This document shows, piece by piece, positions 1 through 58,737 of a DNA stretch of 64,000 nt. Where the stretch lies: the NCBI RefSeq assembly GCF_044647545.1, contig NZ_CP172818.1; one strand, given 5' to 3'. A program made the position numbers and the translations under genes. How positions within the stretch are numbered: position 1 is the first letter of the stretch; each line of letters begins with the position of its first letter. Source of the DNA: Escherichia coli (lineage in GTDB: Bacteria > Pseudomonadota > Gammaproteobacteria > Enterobacterales > Enterobacteriaceae). The notes beneath the pieces were generated by a model. That model had not been told where the DNA came from. It saw nothing but the letters and a program-made list of their open reading frames with translations, and did no database searches.

Positions 1-2739
<2,739 letters not shown>

Positions 2740-2831
2740 ACAACGCCGAAGGTGTTTTGGCGGATTGAGAGAAGATTTTCAGCCTGATACAGATTAAATC
2801 AGAACGCAGAAGCGGTCTGATAAACAGAATT

Positions 2832-2951
2832 TGCCTGGCGGCCTTAGCGCGGTGGTCCCACCTGACCCCATGCCGAACTCAGAAGTGAAACGCCGTAGCG
2901 CCGATGGTAGTGTGGGGTCTCCCCATGCGAGAGTAGGGACCACCTTTTTGC
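2832..2951 (+). rRNA. rrfA: 5S ribosomal RNA with aberrant 3' end (canonical sequence only to ~2939)
   Basis: TGCCTGGCGGCC...CCCCATGCGAGAGTAGGGA matches E. coli 5S, ~92 bp after the 23S end; last ~12 nt replaced by CCACCTTTTTGCG instead of ACTGCCAGGCAT. Confidence 0.8.
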
Positions 2952-3010: not shown

Positions 3011-3538
3011 TTATCCGTCCTGCTTTTGCATCCACTCCACCACAAAATCAGCCAGCCCCTCAACATCATTAATATCCAGTAACGCGACATCAAGATTAAG
3101 CGGCACATCACTGGCTACAACAATAACATGTCTGTCTATCACTAATTCTTCTGGTCGATGTCCGGTTCCATCGCGAAACAGCACAATCTTTGCGATCTCT
3201 TCATGCTTAAACCCTTCGACCAGAATCAAATCCAGCTTTGAAGCATCCATCCGGCTTGCGAGAAAATGCAGATCCAGTTCTTCTTCGTCTGGCGTTTCTG
3301 TCATCAAAGCCCATCGTTGCTGGCTGGCAACGATGGTTTGCGCCGCGCCAGCCTTGCGCAGCTCATAGCTATCTTTGCCCGGTTTATCAACATCCATATC
3401 ATGGTGCGTATGCTTAATCAGCCCCGGACGGATCCCTCTGGCGCATAATGCCGGGATCAGTTTTTTCAGCAGCGTCGTTTTTCCGGTGCCACTCCACGCG
3501 GCAAAGGCGAGTAACGGTATCATTGTCTTTCCTGCCAT
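3011..3538 (-). CDS. mobB: Molybdopterin-guanine dinucleotide biosynthesis adapter protein MobB
   Basis: 175 aa ORF with P-loop [12 protein letters not shown]; overlaps mobA start as in the mobAB operon. Confidence 0.9.
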
Positions 3539-4104
3539 CGGGCAAGCTCCTCTGGCGTATTCACGTTAACAAATGCATCTTTATGATCGCTGAAATCAAC
3601 CGCATGACCGCCAGCCTGACGCATAAATGCCATTACCCGGCGTTCTCCTGCTTGCAAATATTCTTGTAATAAAGGCTCAATAGCGCGGTTTACCAGAGCA
3701 ATAGTCGGGTGATCGCGTTCACCGTCGTGGACCCACACGACAGGCGCATCTTTGCGCTGATGATTAAGCCGGGCGGCTAAATCCTGGGGAATATAAGGCG
3801 TATCGCACGGACAAAACAAAAACCACTCACCCGCTTCCTGCTGCATTACTGAAAGCATTCCTGCCAGAGGGCCTGGGTAATCCGCCAGTGAATCTTCAAT
3901 CACTTTCAGACCGCTTGCCTGATAGATTTCCTGATGACGATTAGCATTAACCACGACGTGAGAGAGCTGCGTCATAAGCGCGTCAGCGACATGTTGCCAT
4001 AATGGTTTGCCGTTTAATTCAAGCAATCCTTTATCTACGCCGCCCATTCGTCTGGCTTTACCGCCTGCCAGCACAACGCCTGTTATCGTCGTCATCAGAT
4101 TCAC
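3520..4104 (-). CDS. mobA: Molybdenum cofactor guanylyltransferase MobA
   Basis: 194 aa [25 protein letters not shown]..., nucleotidyltransferase motif. Confidence 0.93.
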
Positions 4105-4173
4105 CGATATCGCCTCTTTTATTGTGGGATTGACCCTGCTAACGTGTCTGTCTCAAGAGTAAGGAGCATTACT

Positions 4174-4443
4174 ATGAAATGTAAACGTCTGAATGAAGTT
4201 ATTGAACTCCTCCAGCCAGCCTGGCAAAAAGAGCCAGACCTTAACCTGCTGCAATTTTTGCAGAAACTGGCGAAAGAGTCAGGTTTTGACGGCGAACTGG
4301 CGGATTTGACGGATGACATTCTGATCTATCACCTGAAAATGCGTGATTCCGCGAAAGATGCGGTGATTCCGGGTTTGCAGAAAGATTATGAAGAAGATTT
4401 CAAAACGGCGCTATTACGCGCACGTGGCGTAATTAAAGAGTAA
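4174..4443 (+). CDS. yihD: Conserved small protein YihD (DUF1040)
   Basis: 89 aa from [14 protein letters not shown]... inside ORF 4144..4443; synteny. Confidence 0.8.
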
Positions 4444-4519
4444 AAGCTTGTAAGCGGTGCCACCAAAATCATCATGAAATGATATCCTTCATCATTCGTA
4501 ATGTTTTCCGGATGATGGG

Positions 4520-5506
4520 ATGAACAACAGCGCTTTTACTTTCCAGACACTACACCCGGATACCATCATGGATGCTCTGTTTGAGCAAGGGATCCGGGTG
4601 GATTCCGGTCTTACCCCGCTTAACAGCTATGAAAACCGTGTCTATCAATTTCAGGACGAAGATCGTCGACGTTTTGTCGTCAAATTTTATCGTCCTGAAC
4701 GTTGGACAGCCGATCAAATCCTCGAAGAACATCAATTTGCGTTGCAGTTGGTAAATGATGAAGTTCCGGTCGCAGCACCTGTGGCCTTTAACGGTCAGAC
4801 TTTATTGAATCATCAGGGATTTTATTTCGCTGTTTTTCCAGGCGTCGGTGGTCGCCAGTTCGAAGCTGATAATATCGATCAGATGGAAGCGGTTGGGCGT
4901 TATTTAGGGCGTATGCACCAGACGGGGCGCAAACAGCTTTTTATCCATCGCCCGACCATCGGTCTGAATGAATATCTCATTGAGCCTCGCAAGCTGTTTG
5001 AGGACGCTACACTGATACCTTCCGGGTTGAAAGCGGCATTTCTGAAAGCGACAGATGAGCTGATCGCCGCCGTTACAGCACACTGGCGGGAAGATTTCAC
5101 CGTTCTGCGGCTACATGGAGACTGCCACGCTGGGAATATTCTCTGGCGCGATGGTCCAATGTTTGTTGATCTGGATGATGCACGTAATGGTCCGGCTATT
5201 CAGGATTTGTGGATGTTGCTCAATGGCGATAAAGCCGAGCAGCGGATGCAACTGGAAACTATTATTGAAGCTTATGAAGAATTTAGCGAGTTCGACACTG
5301 CTGAAATCGGACTGATTGAACCTTTACGCGCCATGCGTTTGGTTTATTATCTTGCCTGGCTAATGCGGCGTTGGGCTGATCCCGCGTTCCCGAAAAATTT
5401 CCCGTGGTTAACCGGGGAAGATTACTGGCTACGACAGACGGCGACTTTTATAGAACAGGCAAAAGTTCTACAAGAACCCCCTTTGCAATTAACACCTATG
5501 TATTAA
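4520..5506 (+). CDS. srkA: Stress response Ser/Thr kinase SrkA (RdoA/YihE)
   Basis: 328 aa ORF, kinase-like catalytic region HGDCHAGNILW..DLDD; upstream of dsbA. Confidence 0.9.
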   Translation: MNNSAFTFQTLHPDTIMDALFEQGIRVDSGLTPLNSYENRVYQFQDEDRRRFVVKFYRPERWTADQILEEHQFALQLVNDEVPVAAPVAFNGQTLLNHQGFYFAVFPGVGGRQFEADNIDQMEAVGRYLGRMHQTGRKQLFIHRPTIGLNEYLIEPRKLFEDATLIPSGLKAAFLKATDELIAAVTAHWREDFTVLRLHGDCHAGNILWRDGPMFVDLDDARNGPAIQDLWMLLNGDKAEQRMQLETIIEAYEEFSEFDTAEIGLIEPLRAMRLVYYLAWLMRRWADPAFPKNFPWLTGEDYWLRQTATFIEQAKVLQEPPLQLTPMY

Positions 5507-5522
5507 TCGGAGAGAGTAGATC

Positions 5523-6149
5523 ATGAAAAAGATTTGGCTGGCGCTGGCTGGTTTAGTTTTAGCGTTTAGCGCATCGGCGGCGCAGTATGAAGATGGTAAA
5601 CAGTACACTACCCTGGAAAAACCAGTTGCTGGCGCGCCGCAAGTGCTGGAGTTTTTCTCTTTCTTCTGCCCGCACTGCTATCAGTTTGAAGAAGTTCTGC
5701 ATATTTCTGATAACGTGAAGAAAAAACTGCCGGAAGGCGTGAAGATGACTAAATACCACGTCAACTTCATGGGTGGTGACCTGGGCAAAGATCTGACTCA
5801 GGCATGGGCAGTGGCGATGGCACTGGGCGTGGAAGACAAAGTCACTGTTCCGCTGTTTGAAGGCGTACAGAAAACCCAGACCATTCGTTCAGCATCTGAT
5901 ATCCGCGATGTATTTATCAACGCAGGTATTAAAGGTGAAGAGTACGACGCGGCGTGGAACAGCTTCGTGGTGAAATCCCTGGTCGCTCAGCAGGAAAAAG
6001 CTGCAGCTGACGTGCAATTGCGTGGCGTTCCGGCGATGTTTGTTAACGGTAAATATCAGCTGAATCCGCAGGGTATGGATACCAGCAATATGGATGTTTT
6101 TGTTCAGCAGTATGCTGATACTGTGAAATATCTGTCCGAGAAAAAATAA
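5523..6149 (+). CDS. dsbA: Periplasmic thiol:disulfide oxidoreductase DsbA
   Basis: 208 aa, signal peptide [19 protein letters not shown], active site CPHC. Confidence 0.96.
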
Positions 6150-6167
6150 TTCAATGTAAATTACATA

Positions 6168-6197
6168 AAGCCCGTGAATATTCACGGGCTTTTTTTA
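6168..6197 (+). terminator. Rho-independent terminator downstream of dsbA
   Basis: Hairpin AAAGCCCGTGAATATTCACGGGC followed by TTTTTTT. Confidence 0.65.
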
Positions 6198-6261
6198 TTA
6201 TTTAATAAATATAAATACATTCTGATAATGCATCCCGCCGCTGGACATTATTTCAGCATAA

Positions 6262-11857: not shown

Positions 11858-12004
11858 GATTCGCCTGAACATGCCCTTTTTTCGTAAGTAAGCAACATAA
11901 GCTGTCACGTTTTGTGATGGCTATTAGAAATTCCTATGCAACAACTGAAAAAAAATTACAAAAAATGCTTTCTGAACTGAACAAAAAAGAGTAAAGTTAG
12001 TCGC

Positions 12005-12113
12005 GTAGGGTACAGAGGTAAGATGTTCTATCTTTCAGACCTTTTACTTCACGTAATCGGATTTGGCTGAATATTTTAGCCGCCCCAGTCAGTAATGACT
12101 GGGGCGTTTTTTA
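12005..12113 (+). ncRNA. spf: Spot 42 small regulatory RNA
   Basis: Matches GTAGGGTACAGAGGTAAGATGTTCTATCTTTCAGACC...CCCCAGTCAGTAATGACTGGGGCGTTTTTTA with intrinsic terminator; located between polA and engB. Confidence 0.9.
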
Positions 12114-13141: not shown

Positions 13142-13385
13142 ATAGAGCGAGGACGCTAACAGGAACAATGACTCAGGATGAGGGTCAGGAGCGCCAGGAG
13201 GCGAAGACAGAGGATTGTCAGGAAGACAAACGTCCGGAGACGTAATTAAACGGAAATGGAATCAACACGGATTGTTCCGGCTAATGGAAAAACAGGGTGT
13301 GTTGGCGGCCTGCAAGGATTGTAAGACCCGTTAAGGGTTATGAGTCAGGAAAAAAGGCGACAGAGTAATCTGTCGCCTTTTTTCT
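13142..13385 (+). ncRNA. csrC: CsrC small RNA (CsrA-sequestering)
   Basis: ATAGAGCGAGGACGCTAACAGGAACAATGACTCAGGATGAGGGTCAGGAGCGCCAGGAGG... with multiple GGA motifs and terminal hairpin GGCGACAGAGTAATCTGTCGCCTTTTTT; between engB and yihI. Confidence 0.85.
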
Positions 13386-13452
13386 TTGCTTGCTTTCTGT
13401 TAGATTCCGCCGCAAATCTATACTGAATAAAACGGCTAAAAGACGAACCATT

Positions 13453-15591: not shown

Positions 15592-15744
15592 GCCTGATGC
15601 GCTGGGCAACAAAACCTGTAGAAATTATTGCTTTTGTAGGCCAGATAAGGCGTTTACGCCGCATCTGGCATCTGAGCATGATGCCTGATGCGACGCTGGT
15701 CGCGTCTTATCAGGCCTACGACTTTCTCCGCATCCGGCATAAAC
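15592..15744. repeat. REP/BIME cluster in the hemN-glnG intergenic region
   Basis: Repeated GCCTGATGCG...CTTATCAGGCCTAC and GGCCAGATAAGGCGTTTACGCCGCATC units. Confidence 0.6.
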
Positions 15745-20059: not shown

Positions 20060-20220
20060 CGCCGTAAAAAAGATAAAGCGAAAACTGTGCCAACTTTTAA
20101 ATTGCCCCTAAAAGGCGTTATCATGCTTAACATCGTGCAAAAGGGCTGCACCATGATGTGAATGTTGCACCAATATAGTGCTTCAATGGAAACATTAAGC
20201 ACCATATTGGTGCAATGGCC
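20060..20220 (-). promoter_or_regulatory. glnAp2 sigma-54 promoter with upstream NtrC binding sites
   Basis: Minus strand TTGGCACAGTTTTCGCTTTATC (GG/GC -24/-12 elements) at ~20076-20093; NtrC-type palindromes GCACCATATTGGTGCA and TGCACCA...TTGCACCA at ~20147-20217. Confidence 0.75.
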
Positions 20221-20365
20221 TTTGGATAACCCTTTTTATGCTCCGTGAAAGCGATCACAAAGGGACTCTGCAATACTTGTTTGCGGAGGATGTTTGTGAT
20301 CCTGTTTTGTAGTGCGATTAATCCGTGTACAATAACGCGCTATTTCTAATGCCTGAGGCAAAGTT

Positions 20366-43578: not shown

Positions 43579-44508
43579 TTACTCCCCTTCACCCGGAAAC
43601 AGGAACGGGTTGATGGAACTACGGGCATAGCCTTCTTGCTCCATTCGCGCGTCCAGTACCAGAGAGGCGAGGTCATCTGCCACGGCTTCAACTTTCGGTT
43701 CTTTTTCCTGATAAAGAATCTTCAGGTAAGTGCCGCAGTCATCGCAGCTTTCGGCTTTAATCGCGGCCTGTTCGTCATCCAGCGACCAGTAATGCAGTTT
43801 GCCGCTTTGTTCACAGTTGCTGCATTTTACGCGTACTACGTGCCATTCAGTTTCACACAGGTTGCAGTGCAGGTAACGCAGCCCCTGAGTGGTGCCAATT
43901 TGCACCATGCTGGACACCGGCATAGAACCACAAACCGGGCAATATTGACGTTGTTCGCCATATTCCGCACGCGCTTTGCCGGGGATCAGATTGGCCATCT
44001 GCGCCCAGTAGAGCGACAGTGCAGCCCAGATAAACGGCGCTTTATCGCTGCTGACGGACGAGAAATCAGAGGCAAACAGTGCGCTGGCCATATCTTCCAG
44101 CTCCTGAGTCGATGCCTTCTCCAGATTCTCAATCACTGCCAGCGCCGGGCCGCTCATTTCAGGTTTCAGCTCAGCAATCAGCGCCATCAGCAGCTTTTGC
44201 CAGTGCTTATCACGCGGCAGAACGTGAATATCCAGCGGGGGCTTGCCTTGTGCGCTGGCTTCTTTAATGCGCGTGGTCAGATCCATCTCCAGCGGATGGT
44301 CGTACAGCACCACTTCCTGGGCGTGGGCGATAAGCGCAGCAAAGCGCAGGTAATCACCCAGCGGATTATTTTCTGCCAGCTCGCGCAGACGCTCGGCGCG
44401 GCGGTTGTATAAATTCTTGAGCCGAGGGAACAATAACGGCGGAATCATATCCGCCGTACGTTTCTCGCTCGAACCCAGCTCATCTTGCGGGATTATGCGA
44501 ATACTCAT
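43579..44508 (-). CDS. fdhE: Formate dehydrogenase accessory protein FdhE
   Basis: 309 aa ORF with CxxC pairs ([23 protein letters not shown]). Confidence 0.93.
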
Positions 44509-45140
44509 TCAGCTTTCTTTTCCGTTGTCTTGCGGACCTCACGGTACCAGCGCGGGTGATGTTTCTTCGCCCAGGCGCTGGTAACCCATCCTTCCACCAT
44601 GGCGGTAATCGTGCCTTTCACCCAAAGGGCGGCGTAGATATGCACCATGATAACCACAATTAACGCCACTGCGGCAAATGAATGCAGCATTAACGCGAAT
44701 CGGATCACCGGGATTGAGAAAGCAGGTGCAAAATAAGGACGCCAGATAATCACGCCGCTCACCAGCAGCAGAACCAGGAAAATAATCGCCGCCCAGAAAA
44801 CGCATTTCTGACCGAAGTTATAACGCCCGGTGTCACCTACTTCCTCGTTGACGACGATCTTACGAATATTCTTCGCCCAAAAGATATCATCCCGATTGAT
44901 TAGGTTGTGATGCCAGTAACGGAAAAACATGATGATGAACGAGGCAAACATAACCACGCCGACAAACGGGTGCAGAATGCGCGCCAGCTGCGGTGTGCCC
45001 ATGATTTGCATCAACCAGTTGAAGGACGGGAACAAAAAGCCCAGCCCGCTCACCGCCGCCAGGATGAAGCAGAAGGCGGTGATCCAGTGGTTGATACGTT
45101 CCGGCGCGGTGTAGCGCACGATGGTGTCACGTCGTTTCAT
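44505..45140 (-). CDS. fdoI: Formate dehydrogenase-O cytochrome b556 subunit
   Basis: 211 aa membrane ORF with conserved His ligands; overlaps fdoH stop. Confidence 0.92.
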
Positions 45141-46039
45141 TTGCGCTCCTCGTCTTTCTCTTCGTGCAGATTATTCTCTTCCTCATCCGCACGGTTCGGA
45201 CCGACACCCACGTAGTGGAAGATACTGGCCGCAAAGGTAGCCGCAAAGCCAACAGCCGCGAGCGGTTTCCAGATGCCTTTCCAGAATTTCACGGTTTCGC
45301 TGATTTCCGGGTTCTCCGGCAAGCCATGATACAGATTTGGCTTGTCAGCATGGTGCAGCACGTACATAACATGTGTACCACCGACGCCTGCCGGGTCGTA
45401 CAAACCCGCATTGTCGTAACCACGGGTTTTCAGCTCCGCCACGCGCTCGCTCGCCAGCGTTTTCATCGACTCTTTCGTACCGAAGTGAATCGCGCCCGTT
45501 GGGCAGGTCTTCACGCAGGCCGGTTCTTGCCCAACCACCACGCGGTCAACGCACAACGTACATTTGTAGACGCGGTTGTCTTCCGGGTTGAGGCGCGGAA
45601 TGTCGAACGGACAGCCCGCAATGCAATAACCGCAGCCGATGCACTGCTCGGACTGGAAGTCGACGATACCGTTGGCATACTGAATAATTGCCCCTTCCGC
45701 CGGGCACGCTTTCAGGCAGCCTGGATCGGAACAGTGCATACAGCCGTCTTTGCGGATCAGCCATTCCAGTTTGTCGTTCTGCTCCACTTCCGAGAATCGC
45801 ATCACCGTCCACGATTTGGCACTTAAATCATTGGGGTTGTCGTACACCCCAATGTTATTGCCGACGGTATCGCGAATGTCGTTCCACTCTGAACACGCCA
45901 CCTGACAGGCTTTACAGCCGATACAGGTGGTAACGTCGATGAGTTTCGCCACTTCTTCCTGGAAGTCCCGCGCCTGAGGCGCGGGGGTCAGACCGTTAGT
46001 CGCGGAACGACGAATGATATCTTGCGATTGATAAGCCAT
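45137..46039 (-). CDS. fdoH: Formate dehydrogenase-O iron-sulfur subunit
   Basis: 300 aa ORF with four ferredoxin-type Cys clusters (CIGCKAC.., CMHC.., CIGCGYC.., CTLC..). Confidence 0.94.
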
Positions 46040-46051
46040 ATGTCGTCTCCG

Positions 46052-49000
46052 TTACACCTTTTCCACATTCACAAGGAAGGACTTAAACTCCGGCGTCTGC
46101 GTGTTCGCATCACCCACGAATGGCGTTAACGTATTGGCAATAAAGCCTTTTTTCGCAACGCCTTCATAGCCCCAGTGAATCGGAATACCGATGGTATCGA
46201 TATCTTTGCCGTTCGCTTTCAGCGTGCGAATACGTTTGGTCACCACCGCTTTGGCTTTGATATAGCCACGGTTGGAGGAGACTTTCACAGTATCGCCCTG
46301 GGCAATGCCAAGTTTATTCGCCAGCGACTCCCCGATTTCCACAAACTGCTCTGGTTGCAAAATCGCATTCAACAGCGCGTGTTTGGTCCAGTAGTGGAAG
46401 TGCTCGGTCAGACGATAGGTGGTTCCGACATACGGGAACTTATCGGCTTTACCCAATGCTTCGGCGTCGTCTTTAAAGATACGCGCAGCCGGGTTCGAGA
46501 TAACGTTTGGATGCAGCGGGTTAGTTCCCAGCGGCGTTTCAAACGGCTCGTAGTGTTCCGGGAACGGACCTTCCGCCATCTTATCGAGGGCAAACAGACG
46601 TCCCATGCCTTCCTGCTGCATGATAAACGGCCCTACGCCGCTGCCCGGAGGCGCTGCGCTGTAGTCCGGAATATCCCAGCCGGTCCACTTAGTGCCGTCC
46701 CATTTCAGCAACTGACGCTTCGGATCCCATGGGTTACCCTGCGGATCTGCGGAGGCGCGGTTATACAGAATGCGGCGGTTAAGCGGCCATGCCCATGCCC
46801 AGCCCAGCGTGTTACCGAGGCCAGACGGATCGGCGTTATCACGACGCGCCATCTGGTTACCTTCTGGCGTCCAGCTACCGGCGAAAATCCAGCAGCCACA
46901 GGAGGTCGTACCGTCATCGCGCAGTTGGGCGAACGAGCTAAGTTGTTGGCCTTTCTTGACGATAACCGCACCGGTTGCCGGATCGGTAATATCGGCCAGC
47001 GCCTTACCGTTGCTCTCCATCGCCACTTCTTCCGACTTCGGCTCATGCGGAATGGCGTAGTTCCAGGTCATATTCAGCACCTGGTCCGGGTTTGCGCCAC
47101 CCTGTTCGGCATACATCTTGCGCAAGCGCAGGAAGATACCGGAGAGGATCTCGCCATCAGTCAGCGCAATCCCTGGGGCGTCCGCACCTTTCCAGTGCCA
47201 CTGTAACCAGCGACCGGAGTTAACGATTGAACCGTTCTCTTCTGCGAAGCAAGTCGATGGCAGACGGAACACTTCGGTCTGGATCTTCGACGAGTCAACT
47301 TCGTTCAGCTCACCGTGGTTCTGCCAGAAGTTAGAGGTTTCAGTGTTCAGCGGGTCGATGGTGACGAGGAACTTCAGTTTCGACAGACAGCCGATCACTT
47401 TGTTTTTGTTCGGGAATGAGGCAACAGGGTTAAAGCCCTGGCAGATATAGCCATTGACCTTGCCCTCTTTCATCATCTCGAAGTATTGCAGGACGTCGTA
47501 GCCTTTATCCCACTTCGGCAACCAGTCAAAGCCCCAGTTATTTTCCGCCGTCGCTTTATCACCAAAGAAGGCCTTCATCATGGAGACGAAGAATTTCGGG
47601 TAATTGCCCCAGTAGTTAACCTGGCCTTCCAGCAGTGGTTTCGGCGTGTTGGCGGTAAGGTAAGTTTGCAGATCGGTCTGCTTCTCGCTTGGCAACGTCA
47701 TGTAACCTGGCAGACTCTGCGACAGCAGCCCCAGGTCGGTCAGCCCCTGAATATTGGAGTGACCGCGCAGGGCGTTAACGCCGCCGCCAGCCATCCCCAT
47801 ATTGCCGAGCAGCAGCTGGATCATCGCCATCGTACGAATGTTTTGCGCACCAATGGAGTGTTGCGTCCAGCCGAGGGCGTAGAGGAACGACGCTGTTTTA
47901 TCGTGAGCACTGGTTTCGGCGATGTATTCGCAGACTTTCAGGAACGCGTCTTTTGGCGTACCGCAGATGTTTTCAACCACATCTGGCGTATAACGGGAAA
48001 CGTGCTGTTTCAGCAAGTTCCACACGCAACGTGGATGTTGCAGCGTGGTATCGCGTTTGGCGAAGCCGTTTTCGTCCAGTTCGTAAGTCCAGGAGGATTT
48101 ATCGTACTTGCGTTTTTCCGCGTCGTAGCCGGTGAACAGGCCATCTTCAAAGCCGTAATCCTCACGCACGATCAGGCTGGCGTTGGTATAGGCTTCGGTG
48201 TATTCGCGGTTGAATTTTTCATTGTTCAGCAGGTACAGCAATACGCCTGACAGGAAAGCAATGTCAGTCCCGGAACGAATAGGGGCATAGTAGTCAGCCA
48301 CCGCCGCCGTACGTGTAAAGCGAGGATCGATCACAATCAGCTTCGCGCCGTTGTGAATTTTGGCTTCCATCGCCCAGCGGAACCCGACCGGGTGAGCTTC
48401 AGCGGCGTTACCGCCCATCACCACGACGAGGTTGGCATTCTTGATGTCGACCCAGTGGTTGGTCATCGCACCGCGACCAAATGTTGGAGCAAGACTTGCT
48501 ACCGTTGGTCCGTGTCAGACACGCGCCTGGTTGTCGACCGCGAGCATACCCAGCGCGCGGGAGAATTTTTGCGTTAAATAGCCGGTTTCGTTACTCGACG
48601 CGGAAGCACACAGCATCCCGGTGGAGAGCCAGCGGTTAACAGTCACGCCTTCGGCGTTTTGCGCAATGTAGTTCGCATCGCGGTCTTCTTTCATCAGTTT
48701 GGCGATGCGATCAAACGCCTCTTCCCAACTGATTTGTTGCCATTTATCAGAACCTGGCGCACGGTATTCCGGAAACTTCAGGCGGCTTTCGGAGTGGATG
48801 AAATCCACCAGGCCAGCGCCTTTCGGACAAAGTGCTCCGCGGTTGACCGGGTGATCCGGGTCACCTTCGATATGGAAGATAGATGCTTTGGCGTTTTTTG
48901 CTCCGTCACCGAGGCTGTACATCAACAGCCCACAGCCTACGGAACAATAGGTGCAGGTATTACGGGTTTCGCGGGTGCGCAGCAGTTTATACTGCCGGGT

Positions 49001-49102
49001 TTCCGCGAGTGCTACGCTGGGTGCAAAACCCAGTGCCGCTGCCGTGGTGCCTGCCATACCGCCAGCGCAGATCTTAAAGAACTGCCTTCTGCTGACCTGC
49101 AT
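46052..49102 (-). CDS. fdoG: Formate dehydrogenase-O major (molybdopterin/selenocysteine) subunit; in-frame TGA at 48515-48517 read as selenocysteine
   Basis: ORFs 48515..49102 (Tat signal RRQFFKICAGGMAGTTAAALG) and 46052..48466 are in the same frame, separated only by one TGA; combined length ~1016 aa. Confidence 0.93.
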
Positions 49103-49295
49103 GGATTGCTCCTTGTTTCGACATTGTCACGTCCCATTTACATTCGCTTGCTGCGTGTGCAGGGAGTGGGAGTTATTTTTCTTTGCGGAAGGGGCCGCAA
49201 AGGTCCAGAATTGGCTCAATTTCCCTCCATCCAGGAAGGGTTTGTAACAGAATACCATAATGTTGGTGTGTGTGTTCTTATCTGGTTAAGAGAAA

Positions 49296-50129
49296 GTGAA
49301 AAAAACACAGCAAAAAGAAATCGAAAATGTGACAAGTGTCACAGGTGTTCGTCAAATTGAGTTATGGCGGCGTGATGATTTACAACACCCACGGTTAGAT
49401 GAGGTGGCGGAAGAGGTTCCCGTTGCGCTGGTCTACAACGGCATTTCGCATGTAGTGATGATGGCGTCACCCAAAGACCTTGAGTACTTTGCGCTCGGTT
49501 TTTCGCTTTCCGAGGGGATTATCGAAAGTCCGCGCGATATCTTCGGTATGGATGTCGTTCCTTCCTGTAATGGTCTGGAAGTGCAAATTGAGCTTTCCAG
49601 CCGCCGCTTTATGGGGTTGAAGGAGCGTCGCCGGGCACTGGCGGGACGTACGGGATGTGGCGTGTGCGGCGTGGAGCAACTTAATGACATCGGAAAACCG
49701 GTGCAGCCGCTACCGTTCACCCAGACGTTTGATCTCAACAAACTGGATGATGCATTACGTCATCTCAATGATTTTCAGCCAGTGGGGCAACTGACCGGTT
49801 GTACTCACGCCGCCGCCTGGATGTTGCCATCTGGCGAACTGGTCGGCGGGCATGAAGACGTGGGTCGCCATGTGGCGCTGGACAAACTGTTAGGCCGCCG
49901 GTCACAAGAAGGGGAAAGCTGGCAGCAAGGTGCGGTGCTGGTTTCCAGCCGTGCCAGTTATGAAATGGTGCAAAAGTCAGCGATGTGTGGCGTAGAGATT
50001 TTGTTTGCGGTGTCTGCCGCGACCACGCTTGCCGTAGAAGTGGCTGAGCGCTGTAATCTGACACTGGTAGGTTTTTGTAAACCGGGTCGGGCAACGGTTT
50101 ATACCCATCCGCAGCGTTTGAGCAATTAA
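49296..50129 (+). CDS. fdhD: Sulfurtransferase FdhD (formate dehydrogenase maturation)
   Basis: 277 aa ORF; synteny divergent from fdoGHI. Confidence 0.92.
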
Positions 50130-58319: not shown

Positions 58320-58737
58320 TTGGACGTCCGTGCCTGTTGCCGGATGTACGATCTGTAGGCCGGATAAGGCACTCGTGCCGCATCCGGCAATCAATGCCTG
58401 ATGCGACGCTGTCGCGTCTTATCAGCCTACAACTATTGCCGACCCTAGCCGGATATGGCGCTCGTGCCGCATCCGGCAATCAATGCCTGATGCGACGCTG
58501 TCGCGTCTTATCAGGCCTACAACTATTGCCGACCTGTAGGCCGGATAAGGCACTTGTGCCGCATCCGGCAACAATGCTGATGCGACGCGTCGCGTCTTAT
58601 CAGGCCTACAACTATTGCCGACCCGTAGCCGATATGCGCTCGTGCCGCATCCCAATCAATGCCGATGCGACGCTGCGCGCTATCAGGCCACAACAGCCGA
58701 CCCGAGGCCGGAAAGGCACGGCCGCATCCGGCAGTGT
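58320..58737. repeat. Tandem REP/BIME array (~4.5 units of ~85 bp) in the rhaD-rhaA intergenic region
   Basis: Repeated GCCGGATAAGGC.CTCGTGCCGCATCCGGCAATCAATGCCTGATGCGACGCTGTCGCGTCTTATCAGGCCTACAACTATTGCCGACC; distal copies progressively lose bases. Confidence 0.8.

Follow-up and report, generated by a model that had tools for sequence, protein, structure and literature searches.

Selenocysteine (Sec) insertion directed by SelB and a SECIS element in the three formate dehydrogenases of Escherichia coli is textbook knowledge that dates from the late 1980s and 1990s, and the SECIS of fdhF (FDH-H; Rfam RF01988) is its experimentally dissected prototype. The two other enzymes, FDH-O and FDH-N, are regulated differently from each other. 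The corresponding genes, fdoG, fdnG, and fdhF, are the three selenopolypeptide genes of E. coli, and fdoG is induced by selenite (PMC4009273). The SECIS structures of E. coli fdhF and fdnG have served as references (bioRxiv 10.64898/2026.03.03.709296), and rules for bacterial SECIS elements have been formulated: a 17-nt mini-helix located 11 nt from the UGA, with U17, G23, and U24 (PMC8659212).

Here we analyze the in-frame TGA of fdoG in a 64-kb stretch of E. coli DNA (the window). We find that the TGA at 48517..48515 is almost certainly codon 196 of fdoG, recoded as Sec by means of a SECIS hairpin located immediately downstream.

Results

The features of the locus are collected in Table 1. 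The product of the alpha gene, with the internal stop replaced by Cys, matches the TIGR01553 equivalog over residues 2–1015 with a score of 1574.5 bits (cutoff 814.2). Since the gene is followed by fdoH, fdoI, and fdhE and lies divergent to fdhD, and since the gamma subunit is recognized by the FdoI model and falls short of the one for FdnI (NF007558, 243.6 bits, below the cutoff of 339), the alpha gene is fdoG, as the original prediction had named it. The operon is thus fdoGHI-fdhE and codes for FDH-O, not FDH-N. The PGAP label for the alpha gene is "fdnG," despite the FDH-O operon around it. Upstream of fdoG, a match to the Rfam family FdoG1_thermometer was rejected: at 32 bits it stayed below the gathering score of 50, and the alignment was limited to the part with the Shine-Dalgarno sequence and start codon.

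Table 1. Coordinates of the fdoG selenocysteine codon, its SECIS element, and the surrounding genes in the window
Feature	Coordinates	Strand	Description and basis
fdoG	46052..49102	minus	alpha (catalytic, selenocysteine- and molybdopterin-containing) subunit of formate dehydrogenase-O; 1016 residues, Sec at codon 196
UGA, selenocysteine codon 196	48515..48517	minus	translation; alignment with 1kqf_A; same codon number as the TGA of K-12 fdnG
Bacterial SECIS	48462..48520	minus	preceding Val codon, UGA, and hairpin; Rfam SECIS_3, full model 1–59
Apical mini-helix, putative SelB-binding part	48486..48503	minus	nt 15–32 counted from the U of the UGA; fold and pairing across species
Lower stem span	48470..48515	minus	5′ arm about 48515–48505, 3′ arm about 48480–48470; encloses the mini-helix; register ambiguous
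fdoH	45137..46039	minus	beta (Fe-S) subunit; TIGR01582, 478.7 bits; RefSeq
fdoI	44505..45140	minus	gamma (cytochrome b556) subunit; NF007924, 453.3 bits, cutoff 341
fdhE	43579..44508	minus	formate dehydrogenase accessory protein; NF002925, 603.5 bits
fdhD	49296..50129	plus	accessory sulfurtransferase, divergent from fdoG; TIGR00129, 340 bits; RefSeq

Translation of the minus strand from 49102 to 46052 gives a frame of 1,017 codons in which codon 196 is the sole internal stop. In the list of open reading frames the gene appears as two segments, 49102..48515 (195 aa) and 48466..46052 (804 aa from the first ATG); the claim that these share one frame and are split only by the TGA is borne out by the translation, and the position and strand given for the TGA are exact on re-reading of the sequence. 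Around it, the minus strand reads GCG CGT GTC TGA CAC GGA CCA ACG GTA GCA AGT CTT GCT CCA ACA TTT GGT CGC. The protein carries on across codon 196, from DNQARV through the stop into HGPTVASLAPTFGRGAMTNHW, and the frame that is open after the TGA comprises 820 codons matching FdnG residue for residue up to the C terminus. An N-terminal twin-arginine signal, SRRQFFK, is seen in the translation.

A search of solved structures matched the FdoG sequence over its full length to E. coli FdnG (1kqf_A; 1904.8 bits). The TGA-encoded position 196 of the query aligns with X196 of 1kqf_A, which is selenocysteine, within the identical stretch QARV-X-HGPTVASLAPTFGRGAMTNHWVDIKNAN; written with Sec as U, the motif in this alignment is QARV-U-HGPTVASLAPTFGRGAMTNHW. 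In the solved homologue 1kqf the Sec position is a metal ligand. Equivalent TGA codons occur in the two other E. coli genes, at codon 196 in K-12 fdnG and at codon 140 in K-12 fdhF, both of them before HGP. A TGA lying off the conserved Sec/Cys position of formate dehydrogenases would have spoken against recoding; the codon is instead aligned with Sec196, and the claim stands.

The RNA quoted in the original prediction as following the TGA, UGACACGGACCAACGGUAGCAAGUCUUGCUCCAACAUUUGGUCG, is identical to the sequence at 48517..48474, and the proposal that it can form the stem-loop of a bacterial SECIS was supported by a covariance-model search. Rfam SECIS_3 (RF01989) matches with a score of 84.3 bits (gathering score 63; E = 1.8e-19), the UGA of codon 196 occupying model positions 4–6 and the whole element lying inside the coding region. 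This is the sole SECIS match at gathering thresholds in the entire 64 kb. Membership in SECIS_2 (RF01988, the fdhF type) was rejected; because the score on that model, 28.1 bits, lies below its gathering score of 70, the element belongs to the FdnG/FdoG type. As controls, K-12 fdnG scored 84.3 bits on SECIS_3 and K-12 fdhF scored 87.1 bits on SECIS_2.

When nucleotides are numbered from the U of the UGA (U1 G2 A3), an 11-nt spacer (nt 4–14) is followed by the mini-helix, which reads G15 G16 [U17] A18 G19 C20 A21 A22 [G23 U24 C25] U26 U27 G28 C29 U30 C31 C32. The bulged U17 lies at 48501, and G23, U24, and C25 of the loop lie at 48495–48493. The fdoG element therefore has the geometry described for bacterial SECIS elements (PMC8659212), namely an 11-nt spacer, a bulge at U17, and G23 and U24 within the loop. 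Comparison with the fdhF SECIS shows that both begin with the UGA followed by CACGG, that the mini-helix starts at nt 15 in both, and that the bulged U17 and loop G23 and U24 occupy identical positions. The two elements differ in that the apical stem of fdoG is one base pair longer (A18–A22 with U26–U30), leaving a predicted GUC triloop as opposed to GGUC in fdhF, and in that the fdoG lower stem contains a 5-nt asymmetric internal loop; the Sec residue is number 196 in fdoG and 140 in fdhF. By analogy, the fdoG element probably works like the fdhF SECIS, though it is filed under SECIS_3.

The sequence next to the TGA had been described as hairpin-capable. Indeed, the 52-nt region folds into a stem-loop with a minimum free energy (MFE) of −14.6 kcal/mol, but its stability does not exceed that expected by chance: compared with dinucleotide shuffles the z score is −0.61, and 59 of 200 shuffles reach an equal or lower MFE. 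The ability to form a hairpin is by itself weak evidence, since the MFE is unremarkable against shuffles. The SECIS assignment rests on the covariance-model match, on the conserved positions of U17, G23, and U24, and on covariation, not on stability.

Covariation was analyzed with a DNA-pattern scan of the genomes of 100,044 species (pattern GTNTGACAYGGNCCNACNGTNGC), which returned at least 120 loci. The matches listed comprise 68 distinct 62-mers, one of which, from Streptomyces (L054), was removed as a chance match with no formate dehydrogenase context around it, leaving an alignment of 67 sequences (A1). With the TGA and 18 bases of the 5′ arm fixed in the pattern, and with the sample made up of the first 120 matches, the listed sequences are non-random and say nothing about conservation of the TGA. 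The exact 62-mer of the window is found at at least 25 loci, in species including Enterobacter, Citrobacter, and E. albertii. Among the 67 listed sequences, 99.4% of cells in the apical helix (columns 18–25 with 29–35) are paired, and RNAalifold independently returned the same apical helix from the alignment.

Two column pairs of this helix vary in a concerted manner among the listed sequences. Pair 21:33 is GC in 52, AU in nine, and GU in six, and pair 24:30 is AU in 47, CG in 18, and GC in two; neither is broken in any sequence. All four columns are synonymous third codon positions. At pair 21:33, the Val codon GUA is found only with the Ala codon GCU, while GUG is found with GCC or GCU; at pair 24:30, the Ala codon GCA occurs with the Leu codon CUU, GCC with CUG or UUG, and GCG with CUC (all among the matches listed). 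The loop G and U are invariant in 67 of the 67 listed sequences, and the U, nucleotide 24, is itself a synonymous site: its codon is AGU (39 sequences) or GGU (28 sequences) and no other synonym. We conclude that the apical helix is kept by compensatory substitutions at two pairs, 21:33 and 24:30, and that, because the covariation lies at synonymous third positions and U24 is fixed in a synonymous site, protein sequence cannot explain the pattern. The shuffle control for covariation ignores phylogeny, and a single Enterobacterales lineage or event may lie behind the nine A-U cases at pair 21:33.

Which register the lower stem adopts is ambiguous. In the Rfam register (pairs C12-G44 and G11-C45), 86.1% of cells are paired among the 67 listed sequences, compared with 84.2% in a register shifted by one nucleotide (A12-U45, C13/C14-G44/G43), which is the one preferred by the MFE fold of the window sequence. 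The window sequence itself forms 10 of 10 pairs in the shifted register and 7 of 9 in the Rfam register. Thus, neither register is clearly better across species, and the two fit different sequences. Unpaired bases in the lower region (nt 4–14 with 32–41) were reported to decrease UGA read-through by only about 25% (PMC8659212); hence the lower stem tunes efficiency and is non-essential.

We compared fdoG with its paralog. The SECIS elements of fdoG and fdnG (FDH-N, also RF01989) share the codon number of Sec and the SECIS_3 score, whereas the genes belong to different operons, fdnG to its own fdnGHI and fdoG to fdoGHI-fdhE beside fdhD. The two proteins are 77% identical and the two genes 74.5% identical at the nucleotide level, differing on average at 15.3 nucleotides per 20 codons. 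Against this background, the SECIS lies within the longest identical run, which begins at codon 195, measures 71 nt (36 nt for the second longest), and extends about 20 nt beyond the 3′ end of the hairpin. This identity past the hairpin, together with the one-nucleotide-shifted register of the lower stem in Enterobacterales, would fit a functional element that is longer than, or shaped differently from, the textbook 40-nt SECIS, for example one making extra contacts with the ribosome or SelB, or else paralogs homogenized by recurrent gene conversion centered on the SECIS. We regard these readings as unlikely.

An IS-flanked fdnGHI-like operon of about 70% identity occurs on some E. coli plasmids. 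The fdnG-like gene of plasmid pN96-1 belongs to the same enzyme family and mostly retains the peptide motif (CHGPTVAALAPTFGRGAMT; shared motif HGPTVA.LAPTFGRGAMT), but has TGT (Cys) at the codon equivalent to the TGA. Its loop GU is lost, GCU standing in place of AGU, and a SECIS search of this gene gave no match. It provides a natural control, in which a gene without a UGA to recode also lacks the RNA features.

These comparisons bear on the possibility that the hairpin is a mere by-product of the protein motif HGPTVASLAPTFGR, with no role as RNA, and that the UGA is read through in some other way, for example by near-cognate tRNA-Trp. The unexceptional stability of the hairpin is in keeping with such an origin, as is the fact that most invariant columns are first and second codon positions fixed by the protein. 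Yet a protein motif would not make synonymous third positions of different codons covary with 0 broken pairs, or hold the loop U24 invariant at a synonymous site, among the 67 listed sequences; nor would it leave fdoG and fdnG free of synonymous differences over 71 nt when they diverge as they do gene-wide. The Cys-type plasmid copy, moreover, retains most of the peptide (HGPTVAALAPTFGRGAMT) and not the SECIS features. A by-product origin is accordingly most improbable.

The window is chromosomal DNA of E. coli: the 3.5 kb around the TGA match several complete chromosomes of the species at 100% identity and occur in 5,425 of 5,426 genomes. When the best place per record is taken, the 62-mer with the TGA is 100% identical in 5,432 of 5,433 records; there are 10,830 places in total, spread over 5,425 of the 5,426 E. 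coli genomes, and the median genome has two of them (fdoG and fdnG). The only point in favor of a true stop, by which fdoG would be a nonsense pseudogene or two genes of 195 and 804 aa, is that mechanical ORF calling breaks the frame at 48515. This reading has next to no chance of being correct: the 62-nt stretch with its TGA is unchanged at nearly all of these places, the long open frame downstream continues to match FdnG through the C terminus, the TGA coincides with the catalytic Sec in a solved homologue and precedes a curated SECIS, and RefSeq has one 3,051-nt coding sequence (CDS) at exactly the coordinates of the fdoG frame. In addition, a full-length (about 110 kDa), selenium-labelled FdoG has been reported in literature cited in PMC4009273. 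The warning in the original prediction that fdoG is neither two ORFs nor a pseudogene was therefore justified; the gene is intact, because its internal TGA is a known selenocysteine codon followed by the RNA hairpin signal.

Discussion

Recoding of codon 196 as Sec would proceed as in the fdhF system. The approximately 45 nt of mRNA after the UGA, which also encode HGPTVASLAPTFGR, are predicted to fold as a bacterial SECIS hairpin, and the apical mini-helix that starts 11 nt past the UGA would be bound by the C-terminal domain of SelB, as established knowledge of bacterial Sec insertion suggests. SelB, GTP, and Sec-tRNA(Sec) would thereby be tethered over the ribosome as the UGA reaches the A site, and the complex would presumably outcompete release factor 2 (RF2) there. 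The expected product is a single 1016-residue catalytic subunit, in which Sec196 probably ligates the molybdenum of the bis-MGD cofactor, as in FdnG. That SelB binds the mini-helix and competes with RF2, and that Sec has its catalytic role, we infer from established knowledge and from the fdhF system.

The machinery for decoding Sec is present at the species level and is encoded outside the window. No tRNA gene was found within the 64-kb window; among 5,426 complete E. coli genomes, 5,424 carry selC, coding for tRNA-Sec, and 5,425 carry selB, with selA adjacent.

It is exceedingly doubtful that the UGA and SECIS serve mainly as a selenium-sensing checkpoint, in which low selenium or SelB would lead to a stop at codon 196 and so tune FDH-O output, with Sec catalysis secondary: the known competition of SelB with RF2 and the selenite induction of fdoG (PMC4009273) are both compatible with it, but such a checkpoint would be an added consequence of Sec insertion and no replacement for it, and the Sec position is a metal ligand in the solved homologue.

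The Sec codon of fdoG and its SECIS are thus real, were correctly interpreted in the original prediction, and are ordinary. The feature is already known, as fdoG is among the listed selenopolypeptide genes, the element belongs to a curated Rfam family, and RefSeq has a single CDS. The importance of the finding is confined to annotation: unless the TGA is marked as Sec, fdoG risks being split into two ORFs or called a pseudogene, and the RefSeq annotation already treats it as one CDS. The locus is also a clean example of RNA-level selection on synonymous sites within a coding region.

A Plasmid-Borne Relative of the Chromosomal Formate Dehydrogenase Genes

The gene of the FDH-O alpha subunit, fdoG (window 46052-49102; 3153-6203 in locus L001), is named "fdnG: formate dehydrogenase-N subunit alpha" by RefSeq/PGAP. 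The gene so labelled adjoins fdoH and fdoI; the label is a systematic naming quirk, present in all genomes listed.

An IS-flanked fdnG-fdxH-fdnI operon is carried by plasmid pN96-1 and is ~70% identical to window 48400-48640 (241 nt compared). At the position where chromosomal genes have Sec, its fdnG has Cys (TGT), and no SECIS is detected in it. Matches of the pN96-1 kind were found at 25 plasmid places.

Coordinates of the features considered
Feature	Location	Strand	Source
fdnG-fdxH-fdnI operon, IS-flanked	L125 5536-10132, plasmid pN96-1 (NZ_JBXULY010000002.1)		
Outer pair 3:57 of the alignment	window 48518 with 48464		RNAalifold
Rfam matches	window 1-2948, 11995-12113, 13142-13395, 15639-15716, 20177-20284, 58358-58606		Rfam
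naRNA4 cluster, three tandem copies among four matches	window 58358-58606		Rfam
RF02778 sub-threshold match, 5' UTR and start of fdoG	window 49073-49271	minus	Rfam

Structured RNAs in and around fdoG

Across the 5' UTR and start of fdoG, the Rfam family RF02778 ("FdoG-1 5' UTR thermometer") matched below threshold (32 bits, E = 5e-5; gathering score, 50). The alignment is good only over the part with the Shine-Dalgarno sequence, start codon, and first codons, and poor over the 5' two-thirds; the partial match probably reflects shared fdoG sequence and was not taken as a conserved thermometer. Elsewhere in the window, further matches above the gathering score were to 23S rRNA (truncated by the edge of the window at position 1), 5S rRNA, Spot 42, CsrC, ES222 sRNA, and naRNA4 (four matches).

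In the 67-sequence cross-species alignment of the SECIS region, RNAalifold added three outer pairs (1:59, 2:58, and 3:57) that would enclose the UGA. These positions are near-invariant for protein-coding reasons, and only one double change was observed (to U-A, with Met to Ile, in sequence L107); we therefore see no real support for the outer pairs.

Over 71 nt (window 48447-48517 region, fdoG codons 195-218), fdoG is perfectly identical to its K-12 paralog fdnG. On its 3' side this run continues for ~20 nt (…GGTGCGATGACCAACCACTGGGT) past the SECIS hairpin, and may reflect extra RNA-level constraint or gene conversion.
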